Assembly: GCA_038065555.1 (NCBI GenBank)
Contig: JBBTQS010000001.1
Span: forward strand, 256,741-320,740
Direction of reading: 5' to 3'
From: Patescibacteria group bacterium
Lineage (GTDB): Bacteria > Patescibacteriota > Patescibacteriia > Magasanikbacterales > JBBTQS01
DNA: 64,000 nt
Each line of letters starts with the position of its first letter. Position 1 is the stretch's first letter. Below are positions 8,901-57,935 of this stretch, in pieces. The position numbers and the translations under genes are program-made. The notes beneath the pieces were generated by a model that searched no databases, was not told the origin of the DNA, and worked only from the letters and a program-made list of their open reading frames with translations.

Positions 8901-9057
8901 CTTCGGCGAATACCGCAACTGTAGGCTTGTTGATATCTGGGAGCACGTCCACTTTCATAGTCGACAAGCTCCAAACACCGAGAACGCTTATCAAGCCAGC
9001 CATGGCAAGAACAGCGACTCTATTTTTTAGAGACCATTGAATGATTTTGTTAAACAT
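5953..9057 (-). CDS. heavy-metal efflux RND transporter permease (CusA/CzcA HME-RND family)
   Basis: 1034 aa; N-terminus MFNKIIQWSLKNRVAVLAMAGL...VDVLPDINKPTVAV matches the CusA/CzcA start motif; 12-TM RND architecture. Confidence 0.85.
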   Translation of the reverse strand: MFNKIIQWSLKNRVAVLAMAGLISVLGVWSLSTMKVDVLPDINKPTVAVFAEAEGLAPEEVERLVLTPLESAVSGAPGVERVRGTASFGLAIVNAEFGWGSDIFRNRQIIQERISRLQLPEGVKPVLGPVGSIMGEIMWAGLTSEDGKVDGMQLRTLADWTIRPALLRVPGVSDVIVLGGDVREWQINTNAEQMRRYDLRIEDIAENIGTALNNKSGGLLVQGGKEYPLRILIAPNEIAELQDIAIGNFEGRPIRLADVAVLQEGASPVRGSATIDGNPGVILRIAKQPEAETLKVTEAVDEALESLNTGLPQGVELKNDLFRQEWFINAGLSNVLEALRDGTILVIIILILFLMNVRITFITLTAIPLSILVTVIVFRFLDLSVNVMTLGGITVAIGELVDDAIVDVENVSKRLREWRRKGSTGASIMEVVFKASSEVRNSIVYATVLVAVVFLPIFFIPGVEGRLLSSLGAAYLISLIASLVVSLSVTPVLSSYLLAKGSSRGHEEETRLVRAIKQKIGPMILWSIHNVKFVLIGTVATMGIAGVLYFLAGKEGIPPFNEGSATISVVMPVGTDLNTSNEFASKVEDAMREVEGVRRVSHITGRAGADPHDSGANTSEIQVVFEPGLEGESEILFKELQKVLDRFPGADYSLGQPITHRVEELLSGVRAPIVMKVFGDDLVTLRQTAEQIQSELAKQPGVKNPQVQKEVMVPEFRIYPDRNRLAEYGVSSGEVAEELEQGLLGQRIGQVQQGPARIDVVARYDLSSRGNSDALRDLSLPFTGAESLGGAADIRLDAGRNRFSHEGGKRILVVSANYQGSDIVGAVENVRTVMSSKKLPTGQTISYEGTYKSQKENSRRLTVLFGLGLLLIFGILYKAFRSTPLVLQIMLNIPTVFIGGIVGVWITGGVINLAHLVGFISLAGIVSRNGIMLLGKCLQLVQKDQEPFSPETILKATLDRVVPVLMTSLVTALALIPLMLAGGEPGKELLHPLAVVIFGGLVSSTAISLFLTPAVFYRFGKKAAMQSEVDTSGF

Positions 9058-9069
9058 ATAGGGTCTGTT

Positions 9070-10878: not shown

Positions 10879-10897
10879 AAATTTATTCAGTTATAGA

Positions 10898-11845
10898 TTA
10901 GTGAGAGGATCCGCCGTGCTCATCAGTATTAGTTGTAGTTTCGTGATCTGCTGGAGCTTGTCCCTCACTGCCGACCGAAACGGTGATAGGGAAAGTTTTC
11001 ACTTGTCCATTAATACTAAATTGAGCAAAGATCGTATAGGTTCCTTTAGTTGGGAATTCTGACTCAAATACGACTTTTCCGTCTATCGGCTTAGTTTCGG
11101 TAATTGGATGGCCGTGAATAAAGTCATCGGGATCTCCGTGACGAAGTACAACAACATGACCAAACGCACCCAAATATGGATCGATTTGAGTGATCAGCTT
11201 TCCATTCTGCGTCAACGAGAAAATTAAGTTTGCATGTTCTTTCGTTTTTAATTCAGACGCTGTTTGCAGAGTTGCTTGAATGCCGCTTACTGTTGCGGAC
11301 ATGTTTGCGCTTACACTCGGAAATTGTGGTTGCTGTGTTGTGCCACCAATGGTAAGCGGAACACGCAAGGTGATCGGACTTTCTTCTACAGGCTCGATAT
11401 CTACGTACATCTGATACGCGCCCTGATTAGCTATAGTTGTCTTTACAGTCCATTGGCCGTCATTGTATTCGGGATGAACATGCTGGAAGCCGGTCATATC
11501 GTCACGCAACAGAATTAAGTGCATGCGTTTCTCGTGTACGACTTTTAAGTCAGCCAGTCCAAACTCGTGAGCGTCGGCTCCATACAATTTAAAGGCCAGC
11601 GTAACTTCGCCCGGCTTTAAGCCGTCTGCATTTTGCAGATCAATTCTTGTTCCAGCCAATTTTGCTCCATGCATCGCATCGTGAGCATGATCACCACGGG
11701 TGGTTACATCTTGCTTGGTCATGTGCGTGTTTTCAGCAACCGTTTTAGGAACATCCTGATCAGCAGTCTTCGCTCTCATAAACCCGTAACCTATTACAGC
11801 TGCGGCAATCATGACTATTGAGATGATGGGGATTAATTTTTTCAT
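10898..11845 (-). CDS. putative periplasmic metal-binding protein with tandem duplicated His-containing domains and a His-rich C-terminus
   Basis: Signal/TM MKKLIPIISIVMIAAAVIGYGF; two internal repeats each with a HxHP-like motif (FQHVHPEY / FIHGHPIT); tail DEHGGSSH; located in the metal efflux operon. Confidence 0.45.
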   Translation of the reverse strand: MKKLIPIISIVMIAAAVIGYGFMRAKTADQDVPKTVAENTHMTKQDVTTRGDHAHDAMHGAKLAGTRIDLQNADGLKPGEVTLAFKLYGADAHEFGLADLKVVHEKRMHLILLRDDMTGFQHVHPEYNDGQWTVKTTIANQGAYQMYVDIEPVEESPITLRVPLTIGGTTQQPQFPSVSANMSATVSGIQATLQTASELKTKEHANLIFSLTQNGKLITQIDPYLGAFGHVVVLRHGDPDDFIHGHPITETKPIDGKVVFESEFPTKGTYTIFAQFSINGQVKTFPITVSVGSEGQAPADHETTTNTDEHGGSSH

Positions 11846-11932
11846 AGGAAGATTAATTGCGATGAATGAATACCAAAAAAAGCCAACAGGAGGGCCATTC
11901 ACAAAAAGGTTTACCCTTTGGATGAATGAATG

Positions 11933-13634: not shown

Positions 13635-14417
13635 TTATCGTCCGCTATACTTCCGGAACAAGATTGCGGCAGTTGGAATCGCCACAATAGTAATCGCCAC
13701 GCACCAGATCACCGTGATCCACCAGTGATTCCCCATCGGCGTTCCAATCATGAGCGAACGGATAGTCTCGATCACATGCGTGATCGGCTGGTTCTCTGCG
13801 AAGATGCGCAAATACTTCGCCATGGTCTCGGTTGGCGCAAATGCAGCGCTCGCAAACGTCAGCGGGAACACAAGGAAGAATCCCATCCACTGCACAGCCT
13901 CGATAGACTTCGCAAGCAACCCAAGAATTGCAGCAACCCACGACATCGCAAACGTGAAGAGCAAAATCACGCCGAGAATTGCCAACCACTCCACAGGCGT
14001 TGCCGTTGGACGAAATCCAACGAGCAGCCCCACGAGCACCATGATCACACACTGAATCACATTGCGAACAAGATCAGCTGTGACATGTCCCATGAGCACT
14101 CCCCATCCTGCAGCTGGCAATGTCTTGAATCGCTCAATAATACCGCGCTGCAAATCCACCGCAACACTCAACGAGGTCGTCATAGACCCAAAGGCAATAC
14201 ACTGCACGAGAATTCCCGCGAGCAAGAAGTCGATATAGCTCACGGAACCTGTCTGAATCGCACCACCAAATACGTAACGAAATAGCACCATGAACATGAT
14301 CGGCTGAACTGTGAGGCCCAGGATCTGATCAGGATTCTTGAAAATGTGGGACAAGCTGCGCTTGATGAACACCCACAAATCACTACAGAGCCAGTACAGG
14401 GAAGAATGTGTAGTCAT
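13635..14417 (-). CDS. ABC-2 type transporter permease
   Basis: 6-TM ABC-2 (DrrB/NodJ-like) permease; start chosen at MTTHSSLYW, 4 nt after the stop of the upstream ATPase gene. Confidence 0.8.
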   Translation of the reverse strand: MTTHSSLYWLCSDLWVFIKRSLSHIFKNPDQILGLTVQPIMFMVLFRYVFGGAIQTGSVSYIDFLLAGILVQCIAFGSMTTSLSVAVDLQRGIIERFKTLPAAGWGVLMGHVTADLVRNVIQCVIMVLVGLLVGFRPTATPVEWLAILGVILLFTFAMSWVAAILGLLAKSIEAVQWMGFFLVFPLTFASAAFAPTETMAKYLRIFAENQPITHVIETIRSLMIGTPMGNHWWITVIWCVAITIVAIPTAAILFRKYSGR

Positions 14418-14421
14418 AGTA

Positions 14422-15381
14422 TTATGCGGTTGTGTCATCGTTCTTTTGCTCTGCCTGGTGTCCTGTGAGCTGCAAAAATACATCATCGAGCGTCGGCTTG
14501 TGCAAGGACAGCGTCTCAATCTCGATCGATGCAGACTCCATACGATCGAGCACACGCTTGATCTCGCTCACCGTACCGCCCGTTGCAACACTGATAACAC
14601 GCTTCTGCGCATCGTGCTGCATCGCCTCACCATCTATAACCTCAATCGCTTTTTCGAACGAACTTCCTTCCTTGATCGTGAGCTCGAGTCGCTCCTTGCC
14701 CACTCGATCCTTGAGCTCGCTCGCAGTTCCCTGCGCAATAATGCGACCACCATCGAGCACGGCAATGCGATCAGCGAGCTTGTCTGCTTCTTCGAGATAC
14801 TGCGTTGTGAGCAAAATAGTCGTATCTGATGCGACGAGCTGCTCGATCACACTCCACATCGCCATGCGGCTACGCGGATCAAGCCCCGTTGTTGGTTCAT
14901 CGAGAAAGACAATCGGTGGTGTGGCAATCAATGACAACGCGAGATCGAGTCTGCGTCGCATACCACCTGAGTAGGTCTTCACTACACGATTTGCTGCCTC
15001 GACCAGATCGAACTGCACGAGCAATTCATTGCCACGCTTAATACTTTCGGCTTTCGACAAATGATAGAGTCTGCCCATCATTTCGAGGTTTTCCATGGCA
15101 GTGAGATACTCGTCCACGGCAGCGTATTGACCTGTGAGGCCGATACTTGCACGAACACCGTCAGGATTCTCTACAACATTGTACCCGTTGACTACAACGT
15201 CACCACTGTCTGGTTGCAACAAGGTAGAAAGAATGCGGACAGTAGTTGTTTTGCCTGCACCGTTTGGCCCGAGCAGTGCGAGTACCTCACCACGCTTGAC
15301 GGTGAGATCGAGCCCCTTCAATACTTCGAGGTTTTTGTACGACTTCTTGAGATTGCTGATGTGAATTGCGTGGTCTTGCAT
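14422..15381 (-). CDS. ABC transporter ATP-binding protein (DrrA-like)
   Basis: LALLGPNGAGKTTT Walker A, LSGGMRRRL signature, ILFLDEPTTGLD Walker B. Confidence 0.85.
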   Translation of the reverse strand: MQDHAIHISNLKKSYKNLEVLKGLDLTVKRGEVLALLGPNGAGKTTTVRILSTLLQPDSGDVVVNGYNVVENPDGVRASIGLTGQYAAVDEYLTAMENLEMMGRLYHLSKAESIKRGNELLVQFDLVEAANRVVKTYSGGMRRRLDLALSLIATPPIVFLDEPTTGLDPRSRMAMWSVIEQLVASDTTILLTTQYLEEADKLADRIAVLDGGRIIAQGTASELKDRVGKERLELTIKEGSSFEKAIEVIDGEAMQHDAQKRVISVATGGTVSEIKRVLDRMESASIEIETLSLHKPTLDDVFLQLTGHQAEQKNDDTTA

Positions 15382-17805: not shown

Positions 17806-19041
17806 CTAGAATTGAACTGTATTTGGCGAATGTTCAACGGCCCAGAGTGGGAGACCAACAACCGATGGCGCTGTATATACACTCCACACAACTTTAGCAG
17901 GATTAATCTGTACCGAGAGCGTATCGCCAGATGTTGCTGCATGTGTGTCGAGCGTCACAATCAACGGGAAGGCATTTGAAATCGAATTCACCACAACATC
18001 TTTGAACTCAGCGTCGGTGAACACCACGTCGTCGTTCTTGCTCCCCAAATCCTTTGGTCCTGCAACATATGACTTCTGTGCAAGCAGATTAGCAGGGCTC
18101 ACACTGTCCTTATACACCGAGAGAACATATGGTGTATGCGCCGCTGGTGACTTGATCGTTGTGTCAACGGTAAGACCGATGGACCGGAGGGTGTATGGTA
18201 CTTCCTCAACGTTCATCCAGAGAGGGAGAATATGCTGAGGCGTGTGTCCAACTCGTGACTCCATTACACGTGTCTGCACTGGAGACGCACCAACACCAGT
18301 AAGCGGCGTAGAAGTCGGCACATACTTGATGGTTGGCATCGCTGGATACACCGTAATCGAAGGCACTGCACCACTCACTGCCACTCGACGTCGCGCATCG
18401 GTAAGGACGTCATTTGCCATAACGAGCTTGGGCGCGATTTGGAACGAATATGTACATGCTGCAGCTCCTGACTCGTGATAGGTATTTGTATGCGCAATCA
18501 ACCAGAATCGCTTGGTCTGATTAGGGCCGATCATTGATTCAAACCCATCAATAACGACGGGGTTCTTGGGATCCTTGGAAACTGCCTTGTAGGACGCAAT
18601 CGTGGTTGGCGTTGGACCTTCCCCCTCTTTGAGCGACACATACGGCACATTGCAGAGCGTTGATGTCGCCATCATCCCCTGCGTCGCTCCCAATTGTCGT
18701 GCTGCAAATGTAATTGACGAAATCGAAATCGGATTTACCGTGGTATTGGTGAAGTCATACGTGTACACATTGAGACTCGCCTCCTGTGGGACTAGTGCGG
18801 TTGGCGTATGCTCTGGAACAGTTTTGACCATGATATCAAATGCAGGCGCCGCAACCTTTTGCATCTTCTTCGCTGGCGCAGCATTGGTTACTCCACCCCA
18901 AATTCCAATGCCAGCAGTTCCCAACACCACGAGTGCTGCAACGAGCACGCGTGATCCAGATGTACTAGACCGCGGCATAGGATGTGGACAGCTGTCTCCT
19001 GAGCACTGGTGATTCGGGCGTCGTGTCGAAGGTGCGCGCAT
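17806..19041 (-). CDS. hypothetical secreted protein
   Basis: Signal peptide RVLVAALVVLGTAGIGIWG; Thr/Ser/Val-rich beta-type sequence; start chosen at the first ATG downstream of an extended -10 TGcTATACT. Confidence 0.5.
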   Translation of the reverse strand: MRAPSTRRPNHQCSGDSCPHPMPRSSTSGSRVLVAALVVLGTAGIGIWGGVTNAAPAKKMQKVAAPAFDIMVKTVPEHTPTALVPQEASLNVYTYDFTNTTVNPISISSITFAARQLGATQGMMATSTLCNVPYVSLKEGEGPTPTTIASYKAVSKDPKNPVVIDGFESMIGPNQTKRFWLIAHTNTYHESGAAACTYSFQIAPKLVMANDVLTDARRRVAVSGAVPSITVYPAMPTIKYVPTSTPLTGVGASPVQTRVMESRVGHTPQHILPLWMNVEEVPYTLRSIGLTVDTTIKSPAAHTPYVLSVYKDSVSPANLLAQKSYVAGPKDLGSKNDDVVFTDAEFKDVVVNSISNAFPLIVTLDTHAATSGDTLSVQINPAKVVWSVYTAPSVVGLPLWAVEHSPNTVQF

Positions 19042-19068
19042 ACGTGACTTGAAAAGTATATATGCACG

Positions 19069-19077
19069 AGTATAGCA
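19069..19077 (-). promoter_or_regulatory. extended -10 promoter TGcTATACT
   Basis: Minus-strand TTGTGCTATACT about 28 nt upstream of the ATG at 19041; no SD in the short leader. Confidence 0.4.
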
Positions 19078-19081
19078 CAAA

Positions 19082-21899: not shown

Positions 21900-22859
21900 A
21901 TGAGTTGCACAACAGATGCAAGCGCGTTACACTACACTATCATCATTTTACCCATGCAAGCACTTACACTCCAACACATCAACAAGTCCTTCACACTCGC
22001 CAACAAATCCCAGATTGAGGCGGTTCGTGATGTTTCGCTCACGATTGCACCTGGTTCTATTCACGGATTGCTTGGCCCCAACGGCGCTGGTAAATCAACG
22101 ATCATCAGCATGGTCAGCGGCATGATCACACCAGATACTGGCTCGATCTCCCTCTTTGGTGAAGATGTTGTAGCGCACCCCGAACGAACCAAGGCATTCC
22201 TCGGCATCGTTCCGCAAGAGATTGTTGTGGAAATGGCGTTCACTGTGAAGGAAGTCCTCTACTACTTCAGCGGAATGTACGGCGTACCAGCATCGCAGCG
22301 TGAAGTTCGCATTCGTGAAGTATTACAAGCACTCGATCTCGAGAGCAAAATGGACGAACGCGCGCGCAATCTCTCTGGTGGTATGAAGCGTCGGTTGATG
22401 ATTGCAAAAGCCATTCTCCATCGCCCCAAATTCCTCATTCTCGATGAGCCAACCGCAGGAGTTGACGTCACGCTCCGACAGCGCATCTGGTCGCTCGTAC
22501 GCCAGCTCAATGCAGAAGGAACAACGATTCTCTTCACCACGCACTATCTCGAGGAAGCTGAGAATCTCTGCGAGGCAATCACGCTCATTGACCACGGACA
22601 AGTGATCAAGGACGGCAAGCTCAAAGACATTCAACAGGAATTCTCCAAAAATGCGATTCACTTCGAGTTGTACAAGCCGACAACAGCACACCTCCCCGGC
22701 GTAGTGCCTGTTGGCACAGAATTCGAGTATCCAATGACAAATCTCGCAGCAGACACAGGTCTGCTCACTGCGCACTATGGTGACAACATGAAGTCGCTGC
22801 GCTCTGAGGCAGCATCTCTTGAGTCTATTTTCATCAAGCTCACCAATCAATCCGTATGA
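21900..22859 (+). CDS. ABC transporter ATP-binding protein (ABC-2 exporter ATPase)
   Basis: LLGPNGAGKST Walker A, LSGGMKRRL signature, ILDEPTAGVD Walker B; start is either the leaderless ATG at 21900 or the internal MQALTL at 21954. Confidence 0.8.
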   Translation: MSCTTDASALHYTIIILPMQALTLQHINKSFTLANKSQIEAVRDVSLTIAPGSIHGLLGPNGAGKSTIISMVSGMITPDTGSISLFGEDVVAHPERTKAFLGIVPQEIVVEMAFTVKEVLYYFSGMYGVPASQREVRIREVLQALDLESKMDERARNLSGGMKRRLMIAKAILHRPKFLILDEPTAGVDVTLRQRIWSLVRQLNAEGTTILFTTHYLEEAENLCEAITLIDHGQVIKDGKLKDIQQEFSKNAIHFELYKPTTAHLPGVVPVGTEFEYPMTNLAADTGLLTAHYGDNMKSLRSEAASLESIFIKLTNQSV

Positions 22860-23617
22860 TGACCGGCATGTGGGCGCTCTACGCGCGTGAAGTCAAGCGA
22901 TTCCAAAAGATTTTGCTCGATACATTAGCAAGTCCGATTGTTTCTGTGGTGCTCTACCTCGGCATCTTCGGTATTGTCGCTGCGGATAGACTTATTGAAG
23001 GAATCCCGTATGTAACATTCGTGTACACGGGATTGCTCGGCATGATGATGGTCAACAGCAGCTTTTCCAATCCTGCGTTTGCCCTCGTTATTGCGAAGAA
23101 TTTGGGAAGTATTATCGATCTGCAACTTGTTCCGCTCAAGTCGTGGCAAATTGGATTGGCGTACACACTCGCCGCAATGACGCGTGGTTTCATCACGATG
23201 CTTGTGGCAATTCTTGTAACCGTGTGGTTCATTCCAGACATGGGCATTCATAGCTGGTGGTATTTGATCGCCGGTATTCTTGTCACTGGTATTGAATTTG
23301 GTTCTCTTGGTGTTGTATTTGGTCTCTGGGCAAAGAGCTTTGAGGCGCTCACATTCGTGACGACGTTCGTGATGCAACCCATGATCTTCCTTGCTGGTGT
23401 GTTCTATCCGATTGCTGATCTCCCGCATCCTTGGGCAGCAATTAGTATGTGGAATCCGATCCACCACACCATCAACGTGTTGCGCTACGCAGCAACAGGA
23501 TACGCAGACACGTCTCCACTTCTCTCCCTCTCGATCATGACTGGCATCGCGGTTGTACTCTTCGGATGGATGCAGGTGAGCACGCAACGTGGATTGCGAC
23601 GCATCAAGACGCAGTAA
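22856..23617 (+). CDS. ABC-2 type transporter permease
   Basis: ATGA overlap with the ATPase gene; 6-TM ABC-2 permease profile. Confidence 0.8.
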   Translation: MMTGMWALYAREVKRFQKILLDTLASPIVSVVLYLGIFGIVAADRLIEGIPYVTFVYTGLLGMMMVNSSFSNPAFALVIAKNLGSIIDLQLVPLKSWQIGLAYTLAAMTRGFITMLVAILVTVWFIPDMGIHSWWYLIAGILVTGIEFGSLGVVFGLWAKSFEALTFVTTFVMQPMIFLAGVFYPIADLPHPWAAISMWNPIHHTINVLRYAATGYADTSPLLSLSIMTGIAVVLFGWMQVSTQRGLRRIKTQ

Positions 23618-24316: not shown

Positions 24317-27300
24317 TTAAAGCTGTGTGGTCAGAATCGTGTAATTGACGAAGTACGCGTCTGGGACATCGACTACTTTCTTCGCCCAGTCTGCGCCATA
24401 GAGCTCTACAGCACGTGCCTCAGTCGAGACCCACTGCAATGTAGCGTCTGCTGTCACTGCGTAGACCTTCGGAACTGTCGTGATCTTCACGAGGTATGTA
24501 CCTGGCTTGATCGTCATATTCTTGCCGAGCGAGAATGTGGCGAGCTGCTCTGGTGTGATTGTCTTCACCTTGCTGAAGTCCTTGCCATACCAGCTGTGAT
24601 ACACCGCTTCCATAGGGAATGACCGTCGAGTTCCTGATGCGTCAATGTAGTAGACTGCTGTGTTACCGTCGATCTTCACAAGATCGCCCACGCTCAGTCC
24701 AAATGGGATCTGGACACCAGGGACTGGAGTTGTTGGGAGCTTGTCACCCGTAACTGGTGGAGGCGTGACAACGCCGCTTTCTGATGCTGCTGTAACTGTA
24801 ATAGAATCACTTGCAACGGCTGATACCGCACCTGTCGCGCTTGCGAACTTCACATATACTGTCTTGCTTCCATTTCCTGCGCTGAGTGTGAATGCACGTG
24901 AAGTCACGTACGGCTCCCAAACACCTCCAACAAATTCAGGATGTTCGCTCACTGCCATTTCAGATGCACCTGTTGCTGTGAGTTGGAGTACGACGTTGCG
25001 TGATGCTGTTGACGCTGCGTTGGCATTGATGACTACTGTGCCAGCAACTGTTGTTGCGCTTGTAGCACCTGTTGATCCAGATGATCCTTGGCTCAACACA
25101 CTAATCGTTGTGGTTGATGCGTCCGTTGTATTTGTTGCATCCACAAATGCTACCGAAAGCGTTCCGTTACCTGTCATGTCGAGTGTTCCGTCGCCCACTG
25201 ATGCAACGTTGGTACCACGTACCGTGAGCGCACCACGGAAAATTCCTGTTGCAACGCCGGTCTCGGTCATGAGCACTGATTCTGCGTCACCAGTGTTGCT
25301 GTAGAGACGAATCTGGTTAGACCCAGCAGTCATGCTTTCGGACGTTGAGCCATTGAGATTGCCGTCGTCGTCATTTACTTCCACGTAGAGTAGATCTCCT
25401 GCGCGATACGTAATGGTTGATTGCTGTGTACCAGAGCCATCAACAAACCGGAGATACCCATTCGGGTTAATAATTGTTCCTGTTTGTGTCAATGTTCCGC
25501 TGTTGGCGATGCTGCCAACCGCTGGAACCGTGAGATCAACTCCGGTATCTACTACGACAGTTGTTCCTGCTGCAATCGTGAGTGTTCCCATCACTGTCGT
25601 TGTTGCAGTGAATGTGAATGTCTGCCCAGAAGCAGAGATCGTAACATTACCTGGGTATACAAATGTACTTGGCAAGTTACCACTTCCTGTGAAGGCAACC
25701 GTACTTGTTGAAGCAAATCGATACTGGTTGTTTGTGACGGCAATTAATTTTGTTGCATCTGTCGATGCTACCGTAAATGTACCACCATCAACACGGATGT
25801 ACGCAAGAGTTGTTGTAACGCTTGGACGAGTCACTGTGAGTGAGTACCCTGCTGGGATAATCATCGTACTCGAAACAGCGATTTTGCCGAGGTTCATTGT
25901 TCCAGCACTCGCGCCTACTGACTGAAGCGTGCCAGACTGTGTCGTCGAAATCGATGTTGTTGCTGAACCTGCAGTAATCGTTCCCGCTGCAGTCATGAGC
26001 ACATCACCTGCGAAAGTGATTCCAGTAGTTCCGTTAGGCAAAACGATACTCGTTGATGCACCAGTTACAAGGAAGTCATTTGTAACAACCATTGGATCAT
26101 CGAATACATCGAATCGAAGTGTACCTGTCGCAACAGTGAGATTAATGACATCCCAATACCCCATCACATTCGTGAGACTACCACTTGCTGATGTACCAGG
26201 ATAGAGTGTGCCTGATTCCTTACGAATGTATACATCGTAAAACTGTACTGTGGACGAAACAAACTGATCGCCTGTACCATCGAAAATAAATACGTTTTCG
26301 CCTGCTGTAATCGCTGCCGCACCCAGACGTTGGTAGAAGTGCCCACCGACATTGAACTGTCCTGTTCCCCAGAGCAAGCCAATATGCGTCCCTGGATTGC
26401 ACAATCCTGCACCCGATGCTTCGAGTGATAAAGTGCCGTCAGCATCAAGTGTTGCGTTCTTTGTGCGGAAATCTGCGTTACCTTCGGTAACCTTGAGGTG
26501 CGTTGTTGCTAAGCCACCACTCACGATCATTGTTGAAGCACTAGCACACGGGAGTGTTACCTGAAACGTACCAGCAAAAACATGGTTACTCGTTGAAGTT
26601 ACGTAATAAGTTCCAGAATCCTGTGGATCGTAAGAATATGTCGTGCTCACTGTGCTCAGTGTTGCTGATGAACCGATCTGGATATTTCCCTGGAATGTAT
26701 ACGTTGGCGTACCGAGTGCGAGTCCGGCTTGCGCGTTATTTGCGATAGTCAGTGAACCACCTTGTGTCCACGCGATGTTATTTGTTTGGAAATCAAAGAG
26801 TCCTTGTGTAATTGTCGCTGCACAGTACGAGGTCAATGTATCGGATACAAGAATAACACTGTCTGAGGATCCACCTGCTGTATTATTTACTTCAATAGTG
26901 CAGTATGAAGCAGATGAACCTGGTCGGAATGTCTGTGATGCAGCGGTACCACCGAATTCAAGCGCGAACATGTGCGCTTCGTCGAGCGTGAGTGTTCCAC
27001 CGTTGATCATCCAGTCACCCTTCACCGTGGTATCGAGCGCAGGCAAAAAAGTTCCCGAGTTCAACACAAGATCGTCGTTGAATACTGCGGTACCACTATT
27101 AAAAGTAGAAGTAACAGTACCACCTGCGATAGTCATCGCACCTCCGGCCGTCAACGTATATGTTGCAACATTGAATGTACCCGCAGAAATCGTTGATGAT
27201 GCGATTGTAGCGTTGGCACCGAGTGTAATAATACCAGAGTATCCAGATGCAACACGCACTACAAGGTTTGAATAACTCGAGGCAAATGTAGAATCCCAAG

Positions 27301-27523
27301 TTGCATTCGATGTGGATGTGCCGTCGAAGACAATAGTGTCCCCATCTGCAGGTAATGTATTACTATCCCAGTTGGATGCTGTGCTCATGTTACCACTGCC
27401 ATCCCAGGTCTTGGTTGCAGCATGTGTGTCAGCTTGTACACCCACAAACAATGCAAATGCACCTAGGAGCACCCCCGCAGTCCGCAATCCTTGCAACACA
27501 AATGATCTTGTTCCCATACGCAT
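24317..27523 (-). CDS. giant Ser/Thr/Gly-rich cell-surface protein A (beta-helix/Ig-like repeats) with C-terminal about 115-aa shared domain
   Basis: Signal peptide MRMGTRSFVLQGLRTAGVLLGAFALFVGVQA; about 900 aa of T/S/G/A/N-rich beta repeats; C-terminal KPGTYLVKITTVPKVYAV...DVPDAYFVNYT domain homologous to the N-terminus of the 37216-40914 protein. Confidence 0.7.
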   Translation of the reverse strand: MRMGTRSFVLQGLRTAGVLLGAFALFVGVQADTHAATKTWDGSGNMSTASNWDSNTLPADGDTIVFDGTSTSNATWDSTFASSYSNLVVRVASGYSGIITLGANATIASSTISAGTFNVATYTLTAGGAMTIAGGTVTSTFNSGTAVFNDDLVLNSGTFLPALDTTVKGDWMINGGTLTLDEAHMFALEFGGTAASQTFRPGSSASYCTIEVNNTAGGSSDSVILVSDTLTSYCAATITQGLFDFQTNNIAWTQGGSLTIANNAQAGLALGTPTYTFQGNIQIGSSATLSTVSTTYSYDPQDSGTYYVTSTSNHVFAGTFQVTLPCASASTMIVSGGLATTHLKVTEGNADFRTKNATLDADGTLSLEASGAGLCNPGTHIGLLWGTGQFNVGGHFYQRLGAAAITAGENVFIFDGTGDQFVSSTVQFYDVYIRKESGTLYPGTSASGSLTNVMGYWDVINLTVATGTLRFDVFDDPMVVTNDFLVTGASTSIVLPNGTTGITFAGDVLMTAAGTITAGSATTSISTTQSGTLQSVGASAGTMNLGKIAVSSTMIIPAGYSLTVTRPSVTTTLAYIRVDGGTFTVASTDATKLIAVTNNQYRFASTSTVAFTGSGNLPSTFVYPGNVTISASGQTFTFTATTTVMGTLTIAAGTTVVVDTGVDLTVPAVGSIANSGTLTQTGTIINPNGYLRFVDGSGTQQSTITYRAGDLLYVEVNDDDGNLNGSTSESMTAGSNQIRLYSNTGDAESVLMTETGVATGIFRGALTVRGTNVASVGDGTLDMTGNGTLSVAFVDATNTTDASTTTISVLSQGSSGSTGATSATTVAGTVVINANAASTASRNVVLQLTATGASEMAVSEHPEFVGGVWEPYVTSRAFTLSAGNGSKTVYVKFASATGAVSAVASDSITVTAASESGVVTPPPVTGDKLPTTPVPGVQIPFGLSVGDLVKIDGNTAVYYIDASGTRRSFPMEAVYHSWYGKDFSKVKTITPEQLATFSLGKNMTIKPGTYLVKITTVPKVYAVTADATLQWVSTEARAVELYGADWAKKVVDVPDAYFVNYTILTTQL

Positions 27524-27536
27524 TATTATTGGTCGG

Positions 27537-27545
27537 AGTATAGCA
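27537..27545 (-). promoter_or_regulatory. extended -10 promoter TGcTATACT
   Basis: Minus-strand GTGCTATACT 13 nt upstream of the ATG of surface protein A (near-leaderless). Confidence 0.4.
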
Positions 27546-27549
27546 CACT

Positions 27550-28683
27550 TTAGAGTTGTCGGAAAAGTTTTTGCATTCTTTGGGCAATCACTGACCAATC
27601 GAAATTCCTTGCGCGTCGAAGTCCTTCTCCGCGACAGCGCTCTCGCAGTTCGTTATCGCCGCGTAACCGTGTAATTGCCTCTGCGATAGACTGTGGATTA
27701 TTCGGCTCACAGAACACGCCACTCACATCAGACTCCACAATATCTGGGATGCCGCCAACAGGGGTAGCAACAACAGGGATTCCAGCTGCCTGCGCCTCCA
27801 GGAACACATTCCCCAACCCTTCAGAGATCGACGCGCGACAAAATACATCACTCGCATGCAGATATGCAGGCAGATCACGATGGCCAACAGATCCGACGAA
27901 ATGTACTCGCTCACGAATGGATTGCGCCCGCTGTCGCAACACTGGCTCCAGCCCACCACTCCCCACAATTACTACATGCGTGTCCAATGGTAATGCAGCA
28001 CATGCTGCAATCAAATCGCCAACACCATTCTTTTCAACCAACCGAGAAACCGTTATTACAACCCATGCGTCAGCTGGTATTCCGAGTGTTTTTCGCACCT
28101 CGCTGCGCGTTTGCGCCGGTTGTGCAAAATGCGCCACTGCAACGCCATTTGGGATCACCTCTACACGATTGCCCGCATACCCCATCTTCACTGCCCATGC
28201 GCCCAGTGACGAGCTAATCGCATGTATCACTGATGCGCGGCGAAAAATCGCCTGCACCATCCAGAAAAAGCCTCTTGATGCGCGACGAATATGTTCCTCG
28301 CTGTCCCCTTCTTGCACAGACAATACAAAAGGAATCTGTGGACGAAATGCTGCGACAATGCGTGCTGCCAGCCCTCCATAACTCGCCATAATCGCCCAAA
28401 TCGCTTGTACATTACGATGACGAAACGCAATAAGTGGTGCCAAAAGAGGCAATAACACCTTGTCGAGTGCCGCAACACCCACACCAATACGATGCACTTC
28501 CACATTTTCTATGTGTTCGTTTGTCGCGAGTCCTGGCTTGATCCGCGCACAGTAGAGAATCCAACGATACTCAGGAATGCGACGAGTAACCTCTTGTACC
28601 GCAATCTCAGCACCTCCAATAAGCGGCAAATACGCGGTGGAAAAAATCAAAATGGTTTTCTTTGCGTGCACCGCCTGATCCAT
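27550..28683 (-). CDS. glycosyltransferase family 4 (GT-B, GT1/GT4)
   Basis: GT4 N-terminal domain pattern (ILIFSTAYLPLIGGAEIAV) and C-terminal EGLGNVFLEAQAAGIPVV motif. Confidence 0.75.
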   Translation of the reverse strand: MDQAVHAKKTILIFSTAYLPLIGGAEIAVQEVTRRIPEYRWILYCARIKPGLATNEHIENVEVHRIGVGVAALDKVLLPLLAPLIAFRHRNVQAIWAIMASYGGLAARIVAAFRPQIPFVLSVQEGDSEEHIRRASRGFFWMVQAIFRRASVIHAISSSLGAWAVKMGYAGNRVEVIPNGVAVAHFAQPAQTRSEVRKTLGIPADAWVVITVSRLVEKNGVGDLIAACAALPLDTHVVIVGSGGLEPVLRQRAQSIRERVHFVGSVGHRDLPAYLHASDVFCRASISEGLGNVFLEAQAAGIPVVATPVGGIPDIVESDVSGVFCEPNNPQSIAEAITRLRGDNELRERCRGEGLRRARNFDWSVIAQRMQKLFRQL

Positions 28684-48585: not shown

Positions 48586-50268
48586 TTAGTTCGGTGGGGT
48601 GTAGGTGCACAGGTAGTTGAGCCCCTGCGAACCATTGGTCACTTCGACACAGTCGACCGAGCCCGTACCCGTGTTGGCCATGAGAACGTCCACGGATTGG
48701 ATACCGGGATTCTCCCACGGCGTCGGGAAGTAGAACTTCTGGAACGACGAGGCGGCGACCTTGTACTCGATGAAAAGGATGAAGTAGGTGATGTCGTTCC
48801 CGAAGACCGGGATCTCGAACTCCTTCCATCCTTCGATCAACAGCGGCGTCGTGCTGTTGATCCCCCAGTCCGTGTAGGTGCGATCTCCGCTACCGTACGG
48901 ATCCTCGAGGTCCTCGTAGTTCTCGCAGCTGAACTCGTTGATCGCCCACCCAGCCGCCTTCTTGGCCGGGTCGGTCTCGAGCTGCCCACTTGCGCAGGTA
49001 TAGCCGTTGACCTCGAGCGAGTAGATGTTCGCTGATGACTTCTTCGTGACCTGAACCGCGATTTCGACGAGGCTGAGCGGATTGGCCGGCGGCTCGGGAT
49101 CAGTTGCACACTGACCACCGATACTGCAGGCGCAAACCGGCACGTTGCTGCACTGACCGCTCACACAGGAGTCGGCCGTGCATGCCTTGTCGTCGTTGCA
49201 GTTCTTGGCGACTCCGACGCACGCGCCTCCGACGATGATCTCGTCGTTGACCGTACAGCTATCGAAATCGTTGCAGGCGTCGCCGACTTGCGGTCCGACC
49301 ACCACGCACTGCCCCGTTGACGCGGAACACTCTTTGCCGTCGGCGCACTGGACCGGCTCGTTGACACAGGTGCCGCTGACGCAACCGTCTTGCGTGCACT
49401 TGCTGTTATCGAGACACTCCTTCTGCACGCCGTGGCACTCGCCGTTCTGCTTGATCCGATCCGTGACCGTGCAGGGGTCATTGTCGTTACACGACTCGCC
49501 CGGCTGCGGCTCGACGACCGGCTCCTTGCAGACGCCAGACTCGCAGACGTCACCGTCCACGCACTTGGGCGAGGTCGCGCAACCGCTGTCACCCTCGCAG
49601 GTGTCGTTGGTACACGCATTGCCGTCGTCGCACACCTTTGCCACCGCGACGCACTTCTTGCCGTCGCAGGTGTTGTCAGTGCAGAGATCGCCGTCGTCGC
49701 ACAAGGCATTCTTCGCCGTGTGCGAACAGTTGCCGTCGACAATCGCGTCGACGGTGCACGGAACCTCGTCGTCGCAGTCCGGGACCACCACCACTTCGAC
49801 GCATTTGTCGGCGTCGTCGTCGCAGTAGTTACCGTCACCGCAGTCGCGCTCGAAGTGGAGGCAGTCGCCCGTCTCCGCTTCGCACTCGTCCGTGGTGCAG
49901 AACTTGCCGTCGGCGCACGTGCGGACTTCTCCGCCGTTGCACTCGAATTCACCGTCGGCATTCGCATGCCAGCAGGTGCCCTCGGTGCACGGCTTGCCGT
50001 CATCGCACGGGTCGCCTTCCTTCGGGCCGGACGAATCCGGCTCGACGGTGACGTCCTTGGGCGGGACGTAGGTGTCGGCGCTGTCGGTCGCGTCCGAACC
50101 ATCCGTCGTGTCGGGCGGGACGTACGTATCCGGCTGCCCGGCGTCGTACGGCTCCTGCCACGTGTCGGACGGCGGCGGGTTGTTGTACCCCACGTCGTAA
50201 CCATACGGAACAGCAGCCTGACACGCACCCATGAACATCGCCGCCAGTACCACCACCAACTTCTTCAT
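48586..50268 (-). CDS. secreted lipoprotein with tandem cysteine-rich CxDGxxCTxDxC repeats and a C-terminal beta-rich domain
   Basis: MKKLVVVLAAMFMGAC lipobox; Pro/Asp-rich linker; about 8 repeats such as CDDGKPCTEGTC, CDDGDLCTDNTC, CDDGNACTNDTC; the gene is markedly GC-richer than flanking DNA. Confidence 0.6.
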   Translation of the reverse strand: MKKLVVVLAAMFMGACQAAVPYGYDVGYNNPPPSDTWQEPYDAGQPDTYVPPDTTDGSDATDSADTYVPPKDVTVEPDSSGPKEGDPCDDGKPCTEGTCWHANADGEFECNGGEVRTCADGKFCTTDECEAETGDCLHFERDCGDGNYCDDDADKCVEVVVVPDCDDEVPCTVDAIVDGNCSHTAKNALCDDGDLCTDNTCDGKKCVAVAKVCDDGNACTNDTCEGDSGCATSPKCVDGDVCESGVCKEPVVEPQPGESCNDNDPCTVTDRIKQNGECHGVQKECLDNSKCTQDGCVSGTCVNEPVQCADGKECSASTGQCVVVGPQVGDACNDFDSCTVNDEIIVGGACVGVAKNCNDDKACTADSCVSGQCSNVPVCACSIGGQCATDPEPPANPLSLVEIAVQVTKKSSANIYSLEVNGYTCASGQLETDPAKKAAGWAINEFSCENYEDLEDPYGSGDRTYTDWGINSTTPLLIEGWKEFEIPVFGNDITYFILFIEYKVAASSFQKFYFPTPWENPGIQSVDVLMANTGTGSVDCVEVTNGSQGLNYLCTYTPPN

Positions 50269-50321
50269 ATCTCTTCTCCCGGGCCACTTGGACCCTTGCT
50301 CAAGAAATCGCTTTCGAGGGC

Positions 50322-50333
50322 TGACACATGTCA
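50322..50333. promoter_or_regulatory. perfect 12-bp palindrome TGACACATGTCA in the 5' UTR of the Cys-rich lipoprotein gene
   Basis: Inverted repeat TGACA-CA-TGTCA about 55 nt upstream of the start codon; candidate operator. Confidence 0.3.
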
Positions 50334-50486
50334 CCCCTCACCATCGCATTCAGTTTTCAAACGTCGATTTGGTAAGTCGCACATTGCTGTGACGTCTTCC
50401 AATCGTTCGGCTCAAGGCAACACACGAAGGAGGGTACGTGCGTTACCGAACCGAACGATTGCAAAACACCAGTAAATGAACAAGAA

Positions 50487-50515
50487 AGAATACCATATTT
50501 AGCTTAATTTGTCAA
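50487..50515 (-). promoter_or_regulatory. sigma70-type promoter CCTTGACAAAT-17-TATTCT
   Basis: Minus-strand TTGACA/TATTCT with 17-nt spacer, about 210 nt upstream of the lipoprotein start (long 5' UTR containing a 62-nt hairpin at about 50400-50461). Confidence 0.45.
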
Positions 50516-50526
50516 GGGGTAAAAGT

Positions 50527-50572
50527 GGCTAAAATAGCAAGAACCCGCAAAATCGTTTGACTTTGCGGGTTC
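50527..50572 (-). terminator. intrinsic terminator GAACCCGCAAA-N10-TTTGCGGGTTC
   Basis: Perfect 11-bp stem followed on the minus strand by UUGCUAUUUU; lies between the OmpA-like gene end and the next promoter. Confidence 0.5.
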
Positions 50573-50658
50573 AGGTTTTCCCTTTCAGGATCAATTGTGG
50601 GCATTCACTCGCACGTGAAAGGGGTCGTGCGGGGTGGTTTAATGTCGCCCTAGTGGAT

Positions 50659-52092
50659 CTAGAAGCGGACGCCGAGCAAAGCCTGGCCGTCGACGGCTGC
50701 CTCGGCAGAGGTCACGCCGGGCACATCGTTGCCACCGCTGACCTCGAAGCCGATGAAGCCATTGACCGGCGCGCGCTGGTCCTCGAGGAAGTACGCCTTG
50801 TACCCGAATCCGGCTCCGAAGAACACGAAGTCCGAGTACCCCGGCTTGTGCGTCGAGTACCAGGTGAACCGACCGTTGATGGAGAACATGTGCCGACCAA
50901 CCCGACCGAAGACGCCGTAGCGAACTCCGCCGTTCCAGCCTGCATCTGCCTCCTTGTCAGCTTCGGGGAAGCTGTTGGTCGATCCAACTGCCAGGGAGCC
51001 ACCGATGTAGGCGCCCCAGTTCTCGTGCCACTGGAACAGCATGTCCAAGGACAGCTGCCCCATGACGAGTGTCTCGTTGACGTCGAGATCGAGGTCGCCC
51101 ATCACGCGATGGACCGACACTCCAGCCGCAAGTTCGATCGCCGCGTAGGAGAACGAACGAGTGCTGGTTGAACCGACGGTGCCGTTCTTGATGATGCCAT
51201 CGACGTCCTTGCGAAGGCCGTCGATTTCGCGCCATTGGCTGACGTTGTCGTCCTCGAGATCGCCGACGCGCTTGTTGAGCGTCTGGAACTGGGATTCGAA
51301 GTAGCCGACGACGGATTCCGTGTTGGGACCGAGATCCCACACGACAACCGCACGCAGACCCTTGCGTTGATTCCCAACTCCAGGCAGCGCACGCGCCGTC
51401 TGGAAGCCGCCATTGGCCAGCAACTGATTGAATCGCGAGACCCGGAGGTCTGCGAGCATCCGGTTGCAGCTGCTGTGCGTCTTGCCCTGCGTCTGGCACC
51501 GGATCTCATCCGCGAACCCGACCAGACCGATGTCGTGGCCGGACTTCGCGACGCTCAACGCCTTGTCCACGCACTGCTGCGTCGACGCGTTGGCCTCGTA
51601 CTTCCCGACTTCGTACATCGCCACGCAGACGATGTGGTTGTCGAGTCGCCCGAGGACGCTGTGCGCCGCTCGCTGTGCTTGGACGATATGCGGGCGAGCG
51701 CGAACCGTCATCGCGGGACCGGCCTCGGCTGCACGTGTTGCCACGCTCAGCTTCGACTTGAGGTCTGCGACGACGTTGAGCAACTCGGCGTTGTTCGTCT
51801 TGAACGCCGCGAGCTGCTCATTGACCGCTGCGAGGAGCGCCTTGATGCGCTCGTTCTCTTCGCGGGCGGCGGCGAGGTCGGCGAAACCGTTCCCGTTGGC
51901 CTGTGCGGCCTCGAGAACACGGCAACGCTCATTCGCGGCCTCGAGCAGGGCCTTGACCCGCTCGAGCTCGTTCAAGTCCGACTCCAAGGTGGGGTCGAGC
52001 ATGACGATGGTGTCGTCGGCGACAGCGGCGAACGGGATGAACAGAGCCGCGACGATCGCGGCGAGAACGAGGTTGCAGAGGAACTTCTTCAT
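50659..52092 (-). CDS. OmpA-like peptidoglycan-binding domain protein with N-terminal coiled-coil and C-terminal beta-barrel-like region ending in Phe
   Basis: Signal peptide; coiled-coil (LNELERVKALLEAANERC...); OmpA_C-like core (IGLVGFADE...NRMLADLRVSRFNQLLANGG...LRAVVVW); alternating-hydrophobic C-terminal half ending ...ALLGVRF. Confidence 0.55.
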   Translation of the reverse strand: MKKFLCNLVLAAIVAALFIPFAAVADDTIVMLDPTLESDLNELERVKALLEAANERCRVLEAAQANGNGFADLAAAREENERIKALLAAVNEQLAAFKTNNAELLNVVADLKSKLSVATRAAEAGPAMTVRARPHIVQAQRAAHSVLGRLDNHIVCVAMYEVGKYEANASTQQCVDKALSVAKSGHDIGLVGFADEIRCQTQGKTHSSCNRMLADLRVSRFNQLLANGGFQTARALPGVGNQRKGLRAVVVWDLGPNTESVVGYFESQFQTLNKRVGDLEDDNVSQWREIDGLRKDVDGIIKNGTVGSTSTRSFSYAAIELAAGVSVHRVMGDLDLDVNETLVMGQLSLDMLFQWHENWGAYIGGSLAVGSTNSFPEADKEADAGWNGGVRYGVFGRVGRHMFSINGRFTWYSTHKPGYSDFVFFGAGFGYKAYFLEDQRAPVNGFIGFEVSGGNDVPGVTSAEAAVDGQALLGVRF

Positions 52093-52279
52093 GACTAACT
52101 CCGGCCCCCTTTTCGAATAAAGGTAGGAGGCAAACCGTTTGAGACACTAACGTAAATTGTCGATGTGCGGGTTTCCCCCGCGTCGCCCTTTCGGGTGGGT
52201 ACTGGGGAAAACCATGTGTACCGCGATATTCCCACAGAATACTCTGGAAATATCGCGAAACACTTGAATTGAACGTCGA

Positions 52280-52308
52280 ATCGTATCACAATCTACAGAT
52301 TTTGTCAA
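52280..52308 (-). promoter_or_regulatory. sigma70-type promoter CTTGACAAAA-17-TACGAT
   Basis: Minus-strand -35/-10 with 17-nt spacer, about 185 nt upstream of the OmpA-like gene start; the leader contains the CGCGATATTCC...GGAAATATCGCG hairpin (52223-52257). Confidence 0.45.
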
Positions 52309-52421
52309 GTAGTCATTCTAGCTGAAATAACTCGAGGCTCGCGATTTCTTCCCGTAGGGTTGAAATCGCGAGCCTCGTCGTTGACGCCATCGTCGCTGTT
52401 GGCGGCGATGACATCAGAGCG

Positions 52422-53180
52422 TTAGCGGCATTCGAGCTGACACTTGGTGTCTGCCCCACAGCGCGCAATGCACTCTTGAGCCCATCCAGACGCGGGCGAA
52501 CCCTCGTCAGACGGCACGCTGGCGACCGCGGGCTTGCTGGGCTTGGTGACCCGAGCAACGCCGCGGCGCGCACCCTTGGGGATGGACTTGCCCGGGCTCG
52601 CCGCGCGCTCCACAGCCGGTGAGGCGGTGGAAACGGCGAGCGTCGTGCTCAGGCGGCGCAGGACCTCCTTCACGTAGGACAGCTTGGTATCGTCATTGCT
52701 GACGAGCTTGCGCTGCTCTTCGCGAAGGGCCTTCTCGAGACGTCGGATCTCGAGATGCGCCACATCGACGTCCTTGGGATCGAGCTGGGCCGAGTTGCCA
52801 GCGTCGTCCTCGAGCGCGATGGCCACCCGGTAGACCTGGTCGACATCCCAGTCGTCGTTGACGGCGTTCTTGAGGTCGTACCCAGGAAAGGCGTCAGTCG
52901 GCGGGGTCGCGGCGGGGTTGGCCGGGATCTCGGTCGCCTTGCGGACGACCTCGACCAGGCGCGGATCGCGAGCGAGCTGGAGCAGGGCCTCGCGGGCCTG
53001 CTCGAGCAACTCCTCCTTGGCCTCCTCCTTGGGGAGCTGGCGACGGAGCTTGGCGCACTCCGCGGCCGTGGTGCACGTCGGATTGACCGTCGGCGGCGCG
53101 CAGTACGCGACGCCGGTGTAGAAACACGCGATCGCTGCGATCGCGAGGACGGCCATCTTGGAAACGAACTTGTTTCGCAT
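52422..53180 (-). CDS. hypothetical secreted coiled-coil protein with terminal Cys pairs
   Basis: Signal peptide MRNKFVSKMAVLAIAAIACF; N-terminal CTTAAEC and C-terminal CIARCGADTKCQLEC Cys clusters; Ala/Glu/Arg-rich helices; GC-rich. Confidence 0.45.
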   Translation of the reverse strand: MRNKFVSKMAVLAIAAIACFYTGVAYCAPPTVNPTCTTAAECAKLRRQLPKEEAKEELLEQAREALLQLARDPRLVEVVRKATEIPANPAATPPTDAFPGYDLKNAVNDDWDVDQVYRVAIALEDDAGNSAQLDPKDVDVAHLEIRRLEKALREEQRKLVSNDDTKLSYVKEVLRRLSTTLAVSTASPAVERAASPGKSIPKGARRGVARVTKPSKPAVASVPSDEGSPASGWAQECIARCGADTKCQLECR

Positions 53181-57541: not shown

Positions 57542-57935
57542 GGGGATGCCCGGCTTCGATGGGAGGTTCATGGACGTGTCGTAGCATACCGAGCGGACGG
57601 ACGCTCGTTAATCCCCGTCAAACAGTCTACGTGCAAACGTTTACTCGCGCGTGAAGAATTCGATCGCTTCGGCGTTCGCAATGCCTTCATTCGCTCCGGT
57701 CGCAGCCTAATAACTCCGACCCATCACCCTCAGGACACCTCTACTGAGATCGTGGTGCAATACCGAGGTGTAGCATAGGAACGTCGCACCGCGTCCTTCG
57801 CGAAATCAACTGGTGCGCCGTGAGTCAGGGCTTCGCACGCATGCTGCCTGTCTCCCGTATTTCATGCGTGCTTCGTATGGACACTCGATACGCACATCCT
57901 TCCAGACGCGGGTTCGACTCCCGCCATCTCCACCA
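57542..57935 (+). ncRNA. ssrA: tmRNA (ssrA)
   Basis: 5' GGGGATGCCCGGCTTCGATGGG and 3' GACGCGGGTTCGACTCCCGCCATCTCCACCA tRNA-like ends; internal tag reading frame ending ...GCAATGCCTTCATTCGCTCCGGTCGCAGCC TAA TAA (…AMPSFAPVAA**). Confidence 0.85.

Follow-up and report, generated by a model that had tools for sequence, protein, structure and literature searches.

Two designs are described for proteins that tether the outer membrane (OM) to the cell wall. OmpA and OprF of Proteobacteria, for which this role is presumed, combine an 8-stranded β-barrel with an OmpA-like domain whose Asp/Arg pair binds diaminopimelate (DAP). OmpM of Negativicutes and SlpA of Deinococcus-Thermus, abundant OM-wall tethers of Terrabacteria, carry an SLH domain, a coiled coil and a C-terminal barrel (PMC10628300, PMC9388160). 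A periplasmic LysM, SLH or OmpA domain and/or a coiled coil is also paired with a barrel in inverse (intimin, YeeJ) and trimeric autotransporters (10.64898/2026.01.22.700529). Here we describe a 477-residue protein, MEK7647707.1, encoded in a 64,000-nt stretch of a patescibacterial genome (assembly GCA_038065555.1, contig JBBTQS010000001.1, positions 256,741 to 320,740); this whole stretch is called the window, and positions are counted from its first letter. The predicted order is signal peptide, helical region, OmpA/Pal/MotB-fold domain, heptad coiled coil and eight amphipathic strands that end in LLGVRF (Table 1). On balance, we lean towards regarding the protein as a secreted wall-to-bilayer tether analogous to OmpA/OmpM.

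Like OmpA and OprF, the protein has an 8-stranded barrel and an OmpA-like domain with the Asp/Arg pair. Unlike them, it carries the wall-binding domain first and the barrel last, has two additional coiled-coil segments and, between its Asp and Arg, an insert of 7 residues bracketed by Cys, falls short of the Pfam threshold for either domain, and belongs to a member of the candidate phyla radiation (CPR). The order shared with OmpM and SlpA is signal peptide, wall-binding domain, coiled-coil stalk and C-terminal barrel, and these two are the closest analogues because the second coiled coil lies between the wall-binding domain and the barrel. A preliminary description of the gene had called its domain order unusual, which is true relative to OmpA but overlooks the precedent of OmpM and SlpA. 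In contrast to the latter, the wall-binding domain is OmpA-like (a Pfam search of the protein gives no SLH match), the predicted barrel is 8-stranded and pore-less whereas OmpM is a 16-stranded porin and SlpA a much larger one, a further helical region is present at the N-terminus, and the hosts of OmpM and SlpA are proven diderms with BamA. OmpX, NspA, Ail and Lom are the best structural matches of residues 315-477 (TM 0.47-0.66) and likewise have eight long strands, a lumen face rich in Gly and a ...G-x-R-F end, but these are barrel-only proteins. The best structural matches of the middle domain are the periplasmic domains of Pal and MotB, the latter also with an N-terminal helix; Pal is anchored by a lipid and MotB by a transmembrane helix, whereas the anchor here would be the predicted barrel. 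Both domains belong to known folds. The combination of helical region, OmpA-like domain, coiled coil and C-terminal 8-stranded barrel is not described in the literature searched, and its occurrence in Patescibacteria is unexpected.

Predicted domains of the secreted protein

The structural evidence consists throughout of predictions (AlphaFold2, AF2, models and their comparison by Foldseek), and the family comprises six sequences. Searched as a whole against Pfam, NCBIfam, PHROGs and PDB sequences, the protein returns coiled-coil noise and no OmpA match at E<=1, and the domain calls of the preliminary description therefore required independent testing. The AF2 model of the full-length protein has a mean predicted local distance difference test score (pLDDT) of 61.7. 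The open reading frame (ORF) starts with ATG, 6 nt downstream of a Shine-Dalgarno GGAG, and its product has the signal peptide that had been claimed for it; this is of the Sec type, with MKK, a hydrophobic core and a predicted cut between AVA and DD. The strings quoted in the preliminary description are found at residues 191-196 (VGFADE), 210-221 (NRMLADLRVSRF) and 246-252 (LRAVVVW), and at the C-terminus (ALLGVRF).

The AF2 model of residues 120-268 (pLDDT 74.9, predicted template modelling score 0.65) has a β-α-β-α-β topology. Its Foldseek matches are almost exclusively OmpA-like peptidoglycan-binding domains, including MotB (2zvy, E 7e-4), Pal (2w8b, TM 0.72, rmsd 2.5 Å), the C-terminal domain of Acinetobacter baumannii OmpA, OprF, TagL and PorE. 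Because proteins of monoderms are also among the matches (Bacillus subtilis MotS, Mycobacterium tuberculosis OmpATb), an OmpA-like domain alone is no marker of a diderm. In hhalign comparisons, the family profile aligns with Escherichia coli Pal (E 0.0033) and with the C-terminal domain of OmpA (E 0.019), both reference sequences having been entered by hand, and β1, α1, β2 and α2 are in register. D195 falls on the Asp of G-H-A-D (Pal) or G-Y-T-D (OmpA), R217 falls on the second Arg of E-R-R-A, and these two positions form the DAP-binding pair; both residues are invariant in 6/6 family members, and the Cys199-Cys209 insert is bracketed between them. At the level of sequence models, one relative (P0005) matches Pfam OmpA (PF00691) with 20.6 bits (E 5.8e-4; gathering threshold 27.2 bits), the excised middle domain of the target gives no PF00691 match at E<=10, and PDB profile searches with its two excised domains return spurious armadillo-repeat and cytochrome oxidase matches only. 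The OmpA-like core of the preliminary description is borne out by the structural matches, the in-register alignments and the sub-threshold Pfam match of P0005: fold and key residues support an OmpA-like domain, with scores below the Pfam threshold, and the domain presumably binds peptidoglycan.

An exhaustive phmmer search with residues 120-477 against 1.84 billion representatives identifies five true relatives, one at 96% identity (P0001) and four at 31-50% over the best matched stretch (P0002-P0005); a sixth match, a sushi-repeat protein, was rejected as spurious. All five come from related Patescibacteria, where they occupy one and the same envelope locus. Every member has a signal peptide, a helical region (short in P0005), an OmpA-like domain, a second coiled coil, Gly-rich strands and a terminal Phe or Tyr. 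The middle domains follow the pattern G-x-(A/S)-D...H...L-A-x-x-R...R-x-V-x-V-(F)-W, in which D195, H206, L213, A214, R217, R247 and W252 are invariant. Among the divergent relatives the barrel region is only 14-31% identical, and because five divergent relatives keep both the layout and the terminal Phe or Tyr at such identity, the architecture is more than chance. Queried with the protein, with the full alignment or with a coil-trimmed alignment, word-indexed searches recovered P0001 and P0004 and nothing else. No member was added by a pattern scan of genome contigs, two scans of JGI metagenomes (one with a hand-built motif pattern), two scans of viral contigs, tblastn against phage records, or domain hidden Markov models run over all ORFs in 1.36 Mb of loci, and the family is absent from 80 other patescibacterial ftsW loci (each spanning +/-10 kb around ftsW). 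The ratio of nonsynonymous to synonymous substitutions (dN/dS) between the target and its orthologue in locus L001 is 0.18, and the gene is under purifying selection.

In the full-length AF2 model, eight strands of 13-16 residues lie between positions 315 and 476, with block-mean pLDDT of about 50-90 that peaks in the strands. All PDB matches of this region at E<=1e-3 (23/23) are integral OM barrels, among them Pla (E 1e-5), NspA (TM 0.66), OmpX (0.58), the transmembrane domain of OmpA (OmpA-TM, 0.56-0.61), Ail, OpcA and OmpW; the Foldseek probability is 1.0 for NspA, OmpA-TM and OmpX. One face of the strands is formed by V/A/F/L/I/W; on the other, Gly makes up 23% and is accompanied by Ser, Tyr, Arg, Glu and Asp. 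The loops alternate in length (10, 4, 13, 2, 8, 9, 5) in a way that resembles the loops and turns of outer-membrane proteins (OMPs). Of the six termini in the family five are Phe and one is Tyr, so the terminal aromatic residue that had been pointed out is indeed kept, and the target's LLGVRF resembles the C-terminus of OmpX, GVGYRF; the strict zeta-x-G-x-x-hydrophobic-x-hydrophobic spacing of the β-signal is not preserved in every member. Searches with the excised C-terminal region of the target give neither a Pfam match nor a PDB sequence match. The preliminary description had proposed a barrel within a C-terminal β-region of about 190 residues. The strands and the barrel are upheld, the extent is not: the β-region covers about 163 residues (315-477), and a heptad coil of about 45 residues (258-302), overlooked earlier, precedes it. 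An OMP-type barrel is the predicted fold; that it inserts into a membrane, and does so with the help of the β-barrel assembly machinery (BAM), we infer.

The same strands could instead belong to a wall-anchored surface or lattice protein, whose C-terminal β-domain would be soluble or would bury its hydrophobic face in S-layer-like or adhesin contacts with neighbouring proteins. This reading is improbable, though the most probable of the alternatives considered. Imaged CPR cells are reported to be monoderm, and data on the envelope of the group are sparse (10.1101/2021.05.31.446380; PMC12102498; PMC8871954). By itself, an alternating strand pattern is silent on which face points outwards; moreover, one neighbouring gene encodes a secreted protein with a coiled coil and the other a probable lipoprotein that is Cys-rich and adhesin-like, and the cassette which they form with the target contains hypervariable patches as surface antigens do. 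Against this stand the Foldseek neighbours, among whose significant matches there is no lipocalin, avidin or sandwich fold, and the soluble β-sandwich named in the preliminary description as the contrary outcome is thus not what the model resembles. The length of the strands, the conserved terminal aromatic residue and a non-hydrophobic face that is Gly-rich like a narrow OMP lumen, rather than rich in Lys, Glu and Thr, also argue for a membrane barrel.

The barrel follows directly on the helix of residues 258-302 in the AF2 model, as in tethers of the OmpM/SlpA type. A 3-4 spacing runs through F265, F269, L272, V276, L279, N283, W287, I290, L293, V297 and I300, and such clean heptads point to oligomerization and to a spacer of roughly 5-6 nm; the protein is probably oligomeric through this coil, judging from its sequence. 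The region that follows the signal peptide had been described as a coiled coil of about 120 residues. Its helical character stands, and its length is nearer 90 residues (34-124). In the target, P0001, P0002 and P0004 the motif (L/I)(R/K)ALLxAxN occurs in it two to four times, at intervals of about 20-40 residues, and the region may fold as a helical hairpin or bundle instead of one long coiled coil.

Put together as a tether, the protein would be exported by Sec and lose its signal peptide. The OmpA/Pal-fold domain would then hold peptidoglycan non-covalently via Asp195/Arg217, the 45-residue coil would serve as an oligomerizing spacer, and the barrel, of the size of OmpX or NspA, would sit in a lipid bilayer with its hydrophobic face outward. 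Wall and membrane would in this way be linked at a fixed distance.

Host lineage and outer-membrane genes

The preliminary description held the host to be CPR-like, and this is confirmed by FtsW and by the database label. Metagenome-assembled genomes (MAGs) of Patescibacteria, Candidatus Magasanikbacteria among them, contain the nearest relatives of the FtsW encoded in the window, with identities of up to 89% and then of about 50%. MEK7647707.1, identical in sequence to the target, is labelled 'Patescibacteria group bacterium' at NCBI and is encoded on a contig of 881,481 bases, which was also taken into account in assigning the host to CPR. The gene content is typical of CPR, with DUF5667, a VirD4-like coupling protein, four Wzy_C proteins, glycosyltransferases, ABC-2 exporters, type IV pilus genes and Lgt. 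Assemblies in ENA labelled Hain_H41, a prefix that matches the Hainich groundwater wells, contain the same organism, and the clade is apparently one of groundwater Patescibacteria. Among the ftsW loci compared (L008-L087), many TPA_asm MAGs titled 'uncultured Gammaproteobacteria bacterium' have an FtsW that is interleaved with those of Magasanikbacteria and other Patescibacteria; these organism labels look wrong, one such FtsW being 89% identical to that of the window.

Several points weigh against a membrane-embedded tether. In about 84 kb (the Pfam-scanned ORFs of the window and the gene tables of 10-kb extensions at each end) there is no match to BamA/Omp85/POTRA, LptD/Lpt, Lol or TolC, and CPR are regarded as monoderm and devoid of OM tethers (10.1101/2021.05.31.446380; PMC12102498; PMC8871954), so that no membrane or insertase is obvious for the barrel. 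A complete BAM machinery, which the preliminary description had named as the other contrary outcome, is accordingly not seen in these 84 kb. Neither domain of the target is recognized by any Pfam, NCBIfam or PDB sequence model, and hhalign detects no sequence similarity between the barrel profile and OmpX (E 0.33) or OmpA-TM (E 0.14). Furthermore, high expression of the gene is suggested solely by features of its promoter and leader, and the codon composition of the gene and its two neighbours is unlike that of the L27 and pilin genes of the same genome.

If the barrel does lie in a membrane, three bilayers come into question. The cell's own cytoplasmic membrane, reached from outside, is the foremost candidate, although still short of an even chance; an unrecognized outer lipid layer of the lineage and the outer membrane of a host cell are both more doubtful, and to the same degree. 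That an OMP-type barrel without recognizable BAM should occupy a bilayer beyond the wall, whether as part of an unrecognized outer lipid layer or as a self-inserting fastener in a host OM, appears unlikely overall.

A separate low-GC island of the window (5953-11902, minus strand, G+C at third codon positions, GC3, 0.37-0.41) encodes an AcrB-family RND pump, a 602-aa HlyD/CzcB-like adaptor and a 334-aa protein. No outer-membrane factor is seen beside the pump-adaptor pair; the adjoining 334-aa ORF was considered as a TolC-like partner and rejected, being only weakly YtkA-like. The island was probably acquired separately, as a module for metal or drug efflux that works in a single-membrane setting.

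The surface cassette, its signals and its composition

The target lies in the middle of three genes read from the same strand, and in six independent assemblies it is flanked by a secreted protein of about 250 aa and a Cys-rich 'Dicty_CTDC' protein. This cassette is bounded by a conserved 203-aa membrane protein and PDZ protease on one side and by a Wzy_C gene on the other, and so lies within a glycopolymer/envelope locus of a narrow patescibacterial clade. The upstream product is a secreted coiled-coil protein. The Cys-rich protein carries a lipobox-like signal peptide in the window, and its likely true start is the ATG at about 50268 (MKKLVVV...). Its counterpart in L001 (7571-9265, plus strand) is 84% identical, and the public gene calls there consist of two opposite-strand ORFs (328 and 187 aa); a similar wrong-strand call is found at the start of the cassette in L117 and L118, and gene calling seems to be misled by the high GC3. 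In two loci the stretch between the 203-aa gene and the cassette, just upstream of the latter (L002, 1308-3624; L003, 5081-6427), encodes an SLT lytic transglycosylase of intermediate GC3 (0.71), and in L002 also a Bro-N domain protein of low GC3 (0.41).

Table 1. Features of the target gene and its cassette (positions in the window)
Feature	Positions	Strand	Basis or properties
Upstream cassette gene, 252-aa secreted protein	52422..53180	-	no family match; GC3 0.84; dN/dS 0.59 against L001 (fast-evolving)
Promoter-like site TTGACA-17-(TG)TACGAT	52280..52308	-	perfect TTGACA, 17-nt spacer, extended -10
Predicted structured 5' leader, ~180 nt	52093..52273	-	dG -67.8 kcal/mol, z -4.3 vs shuffled controls
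Target ORF, 477 aa	50659..52092	-	NCBI MEK7647707.1, locus tag AAB384_01560, annotated hypothetical
Sec signal peptide, residues 1-25	52018..52092	-	sequence and hydropathy; cleavage site inferred
N-terminal helical/coiled-coil region, residues 34-124	51721..51993	-	pLDDT ~45-62; helical character alone supported
OmpA/Pal/MotB-fold peptidoglycan-binding domain (predicted), residues ~150-257	51322..51645	-	AF2/Foldseek, hhalign, Pfam match of P0005
Heptad coiled-coil stalk, residues 258-302	51187..51321	-	AF2 helix, 3-4 spacing F265...I300
C-terminal 8-stranded amphipathic β-barrel (predicted), residues 315-477, LLGVRF end	50662..51150	-	AF2, Foldseek, face analysis
Intrinsic terminator	50541..50572	-	14-bp stem, 7 G-C pairs, T-tract, ~90 nt past stop
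Downstream cassette gene, Cys-rich (Dicty_CTDC-like repeats) probable lipoprotein	48586..50334	-	GC3 0.82

With its own promoter-like site and terminator, the target would be the central, separately transcribed gene of a surface cassette that comprises a secreted coiled-coil protein, the tether and a Cys-rich lipoprotein; a further promoter-like site precedes the downstream gene (50487-50515, minus strand). The -35 box of the target (CTTGACAAAA) is conserved in five orthologous loci. The start of the leader follows from the promoter match. Its 5'-proximal hairpin is kept with differing sequences in the window and L001, in L005, in L003 and in L002, and no Rfam family matches the leader. This element may stabilize the mRNA, and by analogy the expression signals resemble those of the stabilized mRNAs of abundant envelope proteins.

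Over a 5.4-kb stretch around the target, GC is raised to about 0.60 against about 0.51 elsewhere. The rise is concentrated at third codon positions: GC3 of the three cassette genes (48586-53180) is 0.82-0.84, compared with 0.50-0.55 in the flanks, GC1 and GC2 are near normal, and the spacers within the cassette are host-like (GC 0.47-0.54). The shift to G/C-ending codons extends across all amino acids, and the effective number of codons (Nc) is slightly below the expectation from GC3, no more. Orthologous cassettes, whose proteins are 23-38% identical, each have a GC3 of 0.78-0.95 whatever that of their flanks (0.35-0.63). Two explanations were considered and rejected. Expression-linked codon selection is unsupported because the genes for ribosomal protein L27 (GC3 0.59) and pilin (0.53) in the same genome are normal, and Nc is near expectation; a single recent horizontal transfer is excluded, since five diverged lineages share the anomaly regardless of flank GC. 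Compared with L001, the cassette including its spacers is less diverged than its surroundings, with identity mostly 0.92-0.98 (flanks 0.81-0.91) and synonymous divergence (dS) of 0.20-0.25 (flanks 0.50-0.83), and it contains indel-rich hypervariable patches. Such a pattern suggests that alleles are exchanged at a surface locus, perhaps accompanied by GC-biased gene conversion or fed by a GC-rich reservoir not yet sampled; for the GC3 excess itself, possible causes are biased gene conversion in the course of recombination, a reservoir of this kind, or selection on synonymous sites.

These properties of the cassette bear on a second alternative, in which the OmpA-like domain would sit on the wall of an epibiont and the coils would project a barrel that inserts by itself into the OM of a Gram-negative host cell, fastening the two cells together. 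CPR live for the most part as obligate epibionts (PMC12102498). The adhesin-like lipoprotein of the cassette and the lytic transglycosylase found in two lineages would fit such a role, as would a recombining and diversifying cassette (less diverged than its flanks, with hypervariable patches and a fast-evolving upstream gene) of composition atypical for the genome, and neither an insertase nor an outer membrane of the cell's own is evident in the region scanned. Against it, we know of no precedent for a monomeric 8-stranded barrel that enters from outside through the lipopolysaccharide leaflet, and we regard this alternative as quite improbable.

A GC3 far above that of the flanks (about 0.52), together with OMP-type features that have no obvious use in a monoderm, could also signal a recent, non-functional import from a diderm, or an assembly artefact such as a chimeric join or a misbinned contig. 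This is very improbable. The same junctions recur in the six independent assemblies, where two of the contigs, 338 kb and 881 kb long, have the gene content of CPR, and the cassette occurs in five lineages, each time with high GC3. The low dN/dS of the target and its conserved promoter and leader point the same way, and no homologue was found outside the clade among the 1.84 billion representatives, JGI metagenomes, viral contigs and phage records. Independent assemblies, purifying selection and conserved regulation thus largely refute an import or artefact. Least credible of all is an autotransporter-like unit in which the barrel would export the coiled-coil and OmpA-like region as in type V secretion, to which the layout of passenger, helix and C-terminal barrel and a weak match of one family member's C-terminal region to Pfam Autotransporter (PF03797, E 0.0033) could point, but autotransporters have 12-stranded barrels (or four strands per chain in trimeric ones) that export a large passenger, whereas the model of the target has eight strands and no passenger beyond the barrel, its best structural matches are of the pore-less OmpX/NspA type, and a wall-binding OmpA-like domain is atypical as a passenger.

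Elsewhere in the window, a glycopolymer locus (27550-48047) encodes four Wzy_C (O-antigen ligase/polymerase-like) proteins, one of them with TPR repeats, several GT4 glycosyltransferases, an epimerase, an extracytoplasmic function sigma factor with a DUF5667 protein, and a 1232-aa protein without a family match. Two pairs of ABC-2 exporter genes lie outside it (13635-15381 and 21900-23617). Two minus-strand ORFs of 1093 aa (24317-27598) and 424 aa (17806-19080) give no Pfam match and are possibly CPR-specific surface proteins. The window also contains a tmRNA gene (57542-57935, plus strand; tag ANVYSRVKNSIASAFAMPSFAPVAA), in a region where related loci have smpB, and a tRNA-Gln(CTG) gene (5835-5908, plus strand).

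Implications for the patescibacterial envelope

As a tether, the protein would add a third combination, of OmpA-like domain, coiled coil and C-terminal barrel, to the designs of OmpA and OmpM. Patescibacteria are placed in the monoderm branch of Terrabacteria, and models of OM loss treat them as having lost the outer membrane along with its porins and tethers. A conserved and selected protein whose gene has strong expression signals, and in which a spacer joins a predicted wall-binding domain to a barrel of the OMP type, is the kind of molecule that these models predict to be absent. If the barrel is membrane-embedded, some CPR would have an outer lipid layer; alternatively, OMP-type barrels would be usable independently of BAM, in the cytoplasmic membrane for instance, or an epibiont would plug into its host by means of such a barrel. 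Should the barrel lie in a bilayer beyond the wall, the foreign-looking GC3 would be the mark of a module for host interaction whose exchange or upkeep is separate from that of the rest of the genome.

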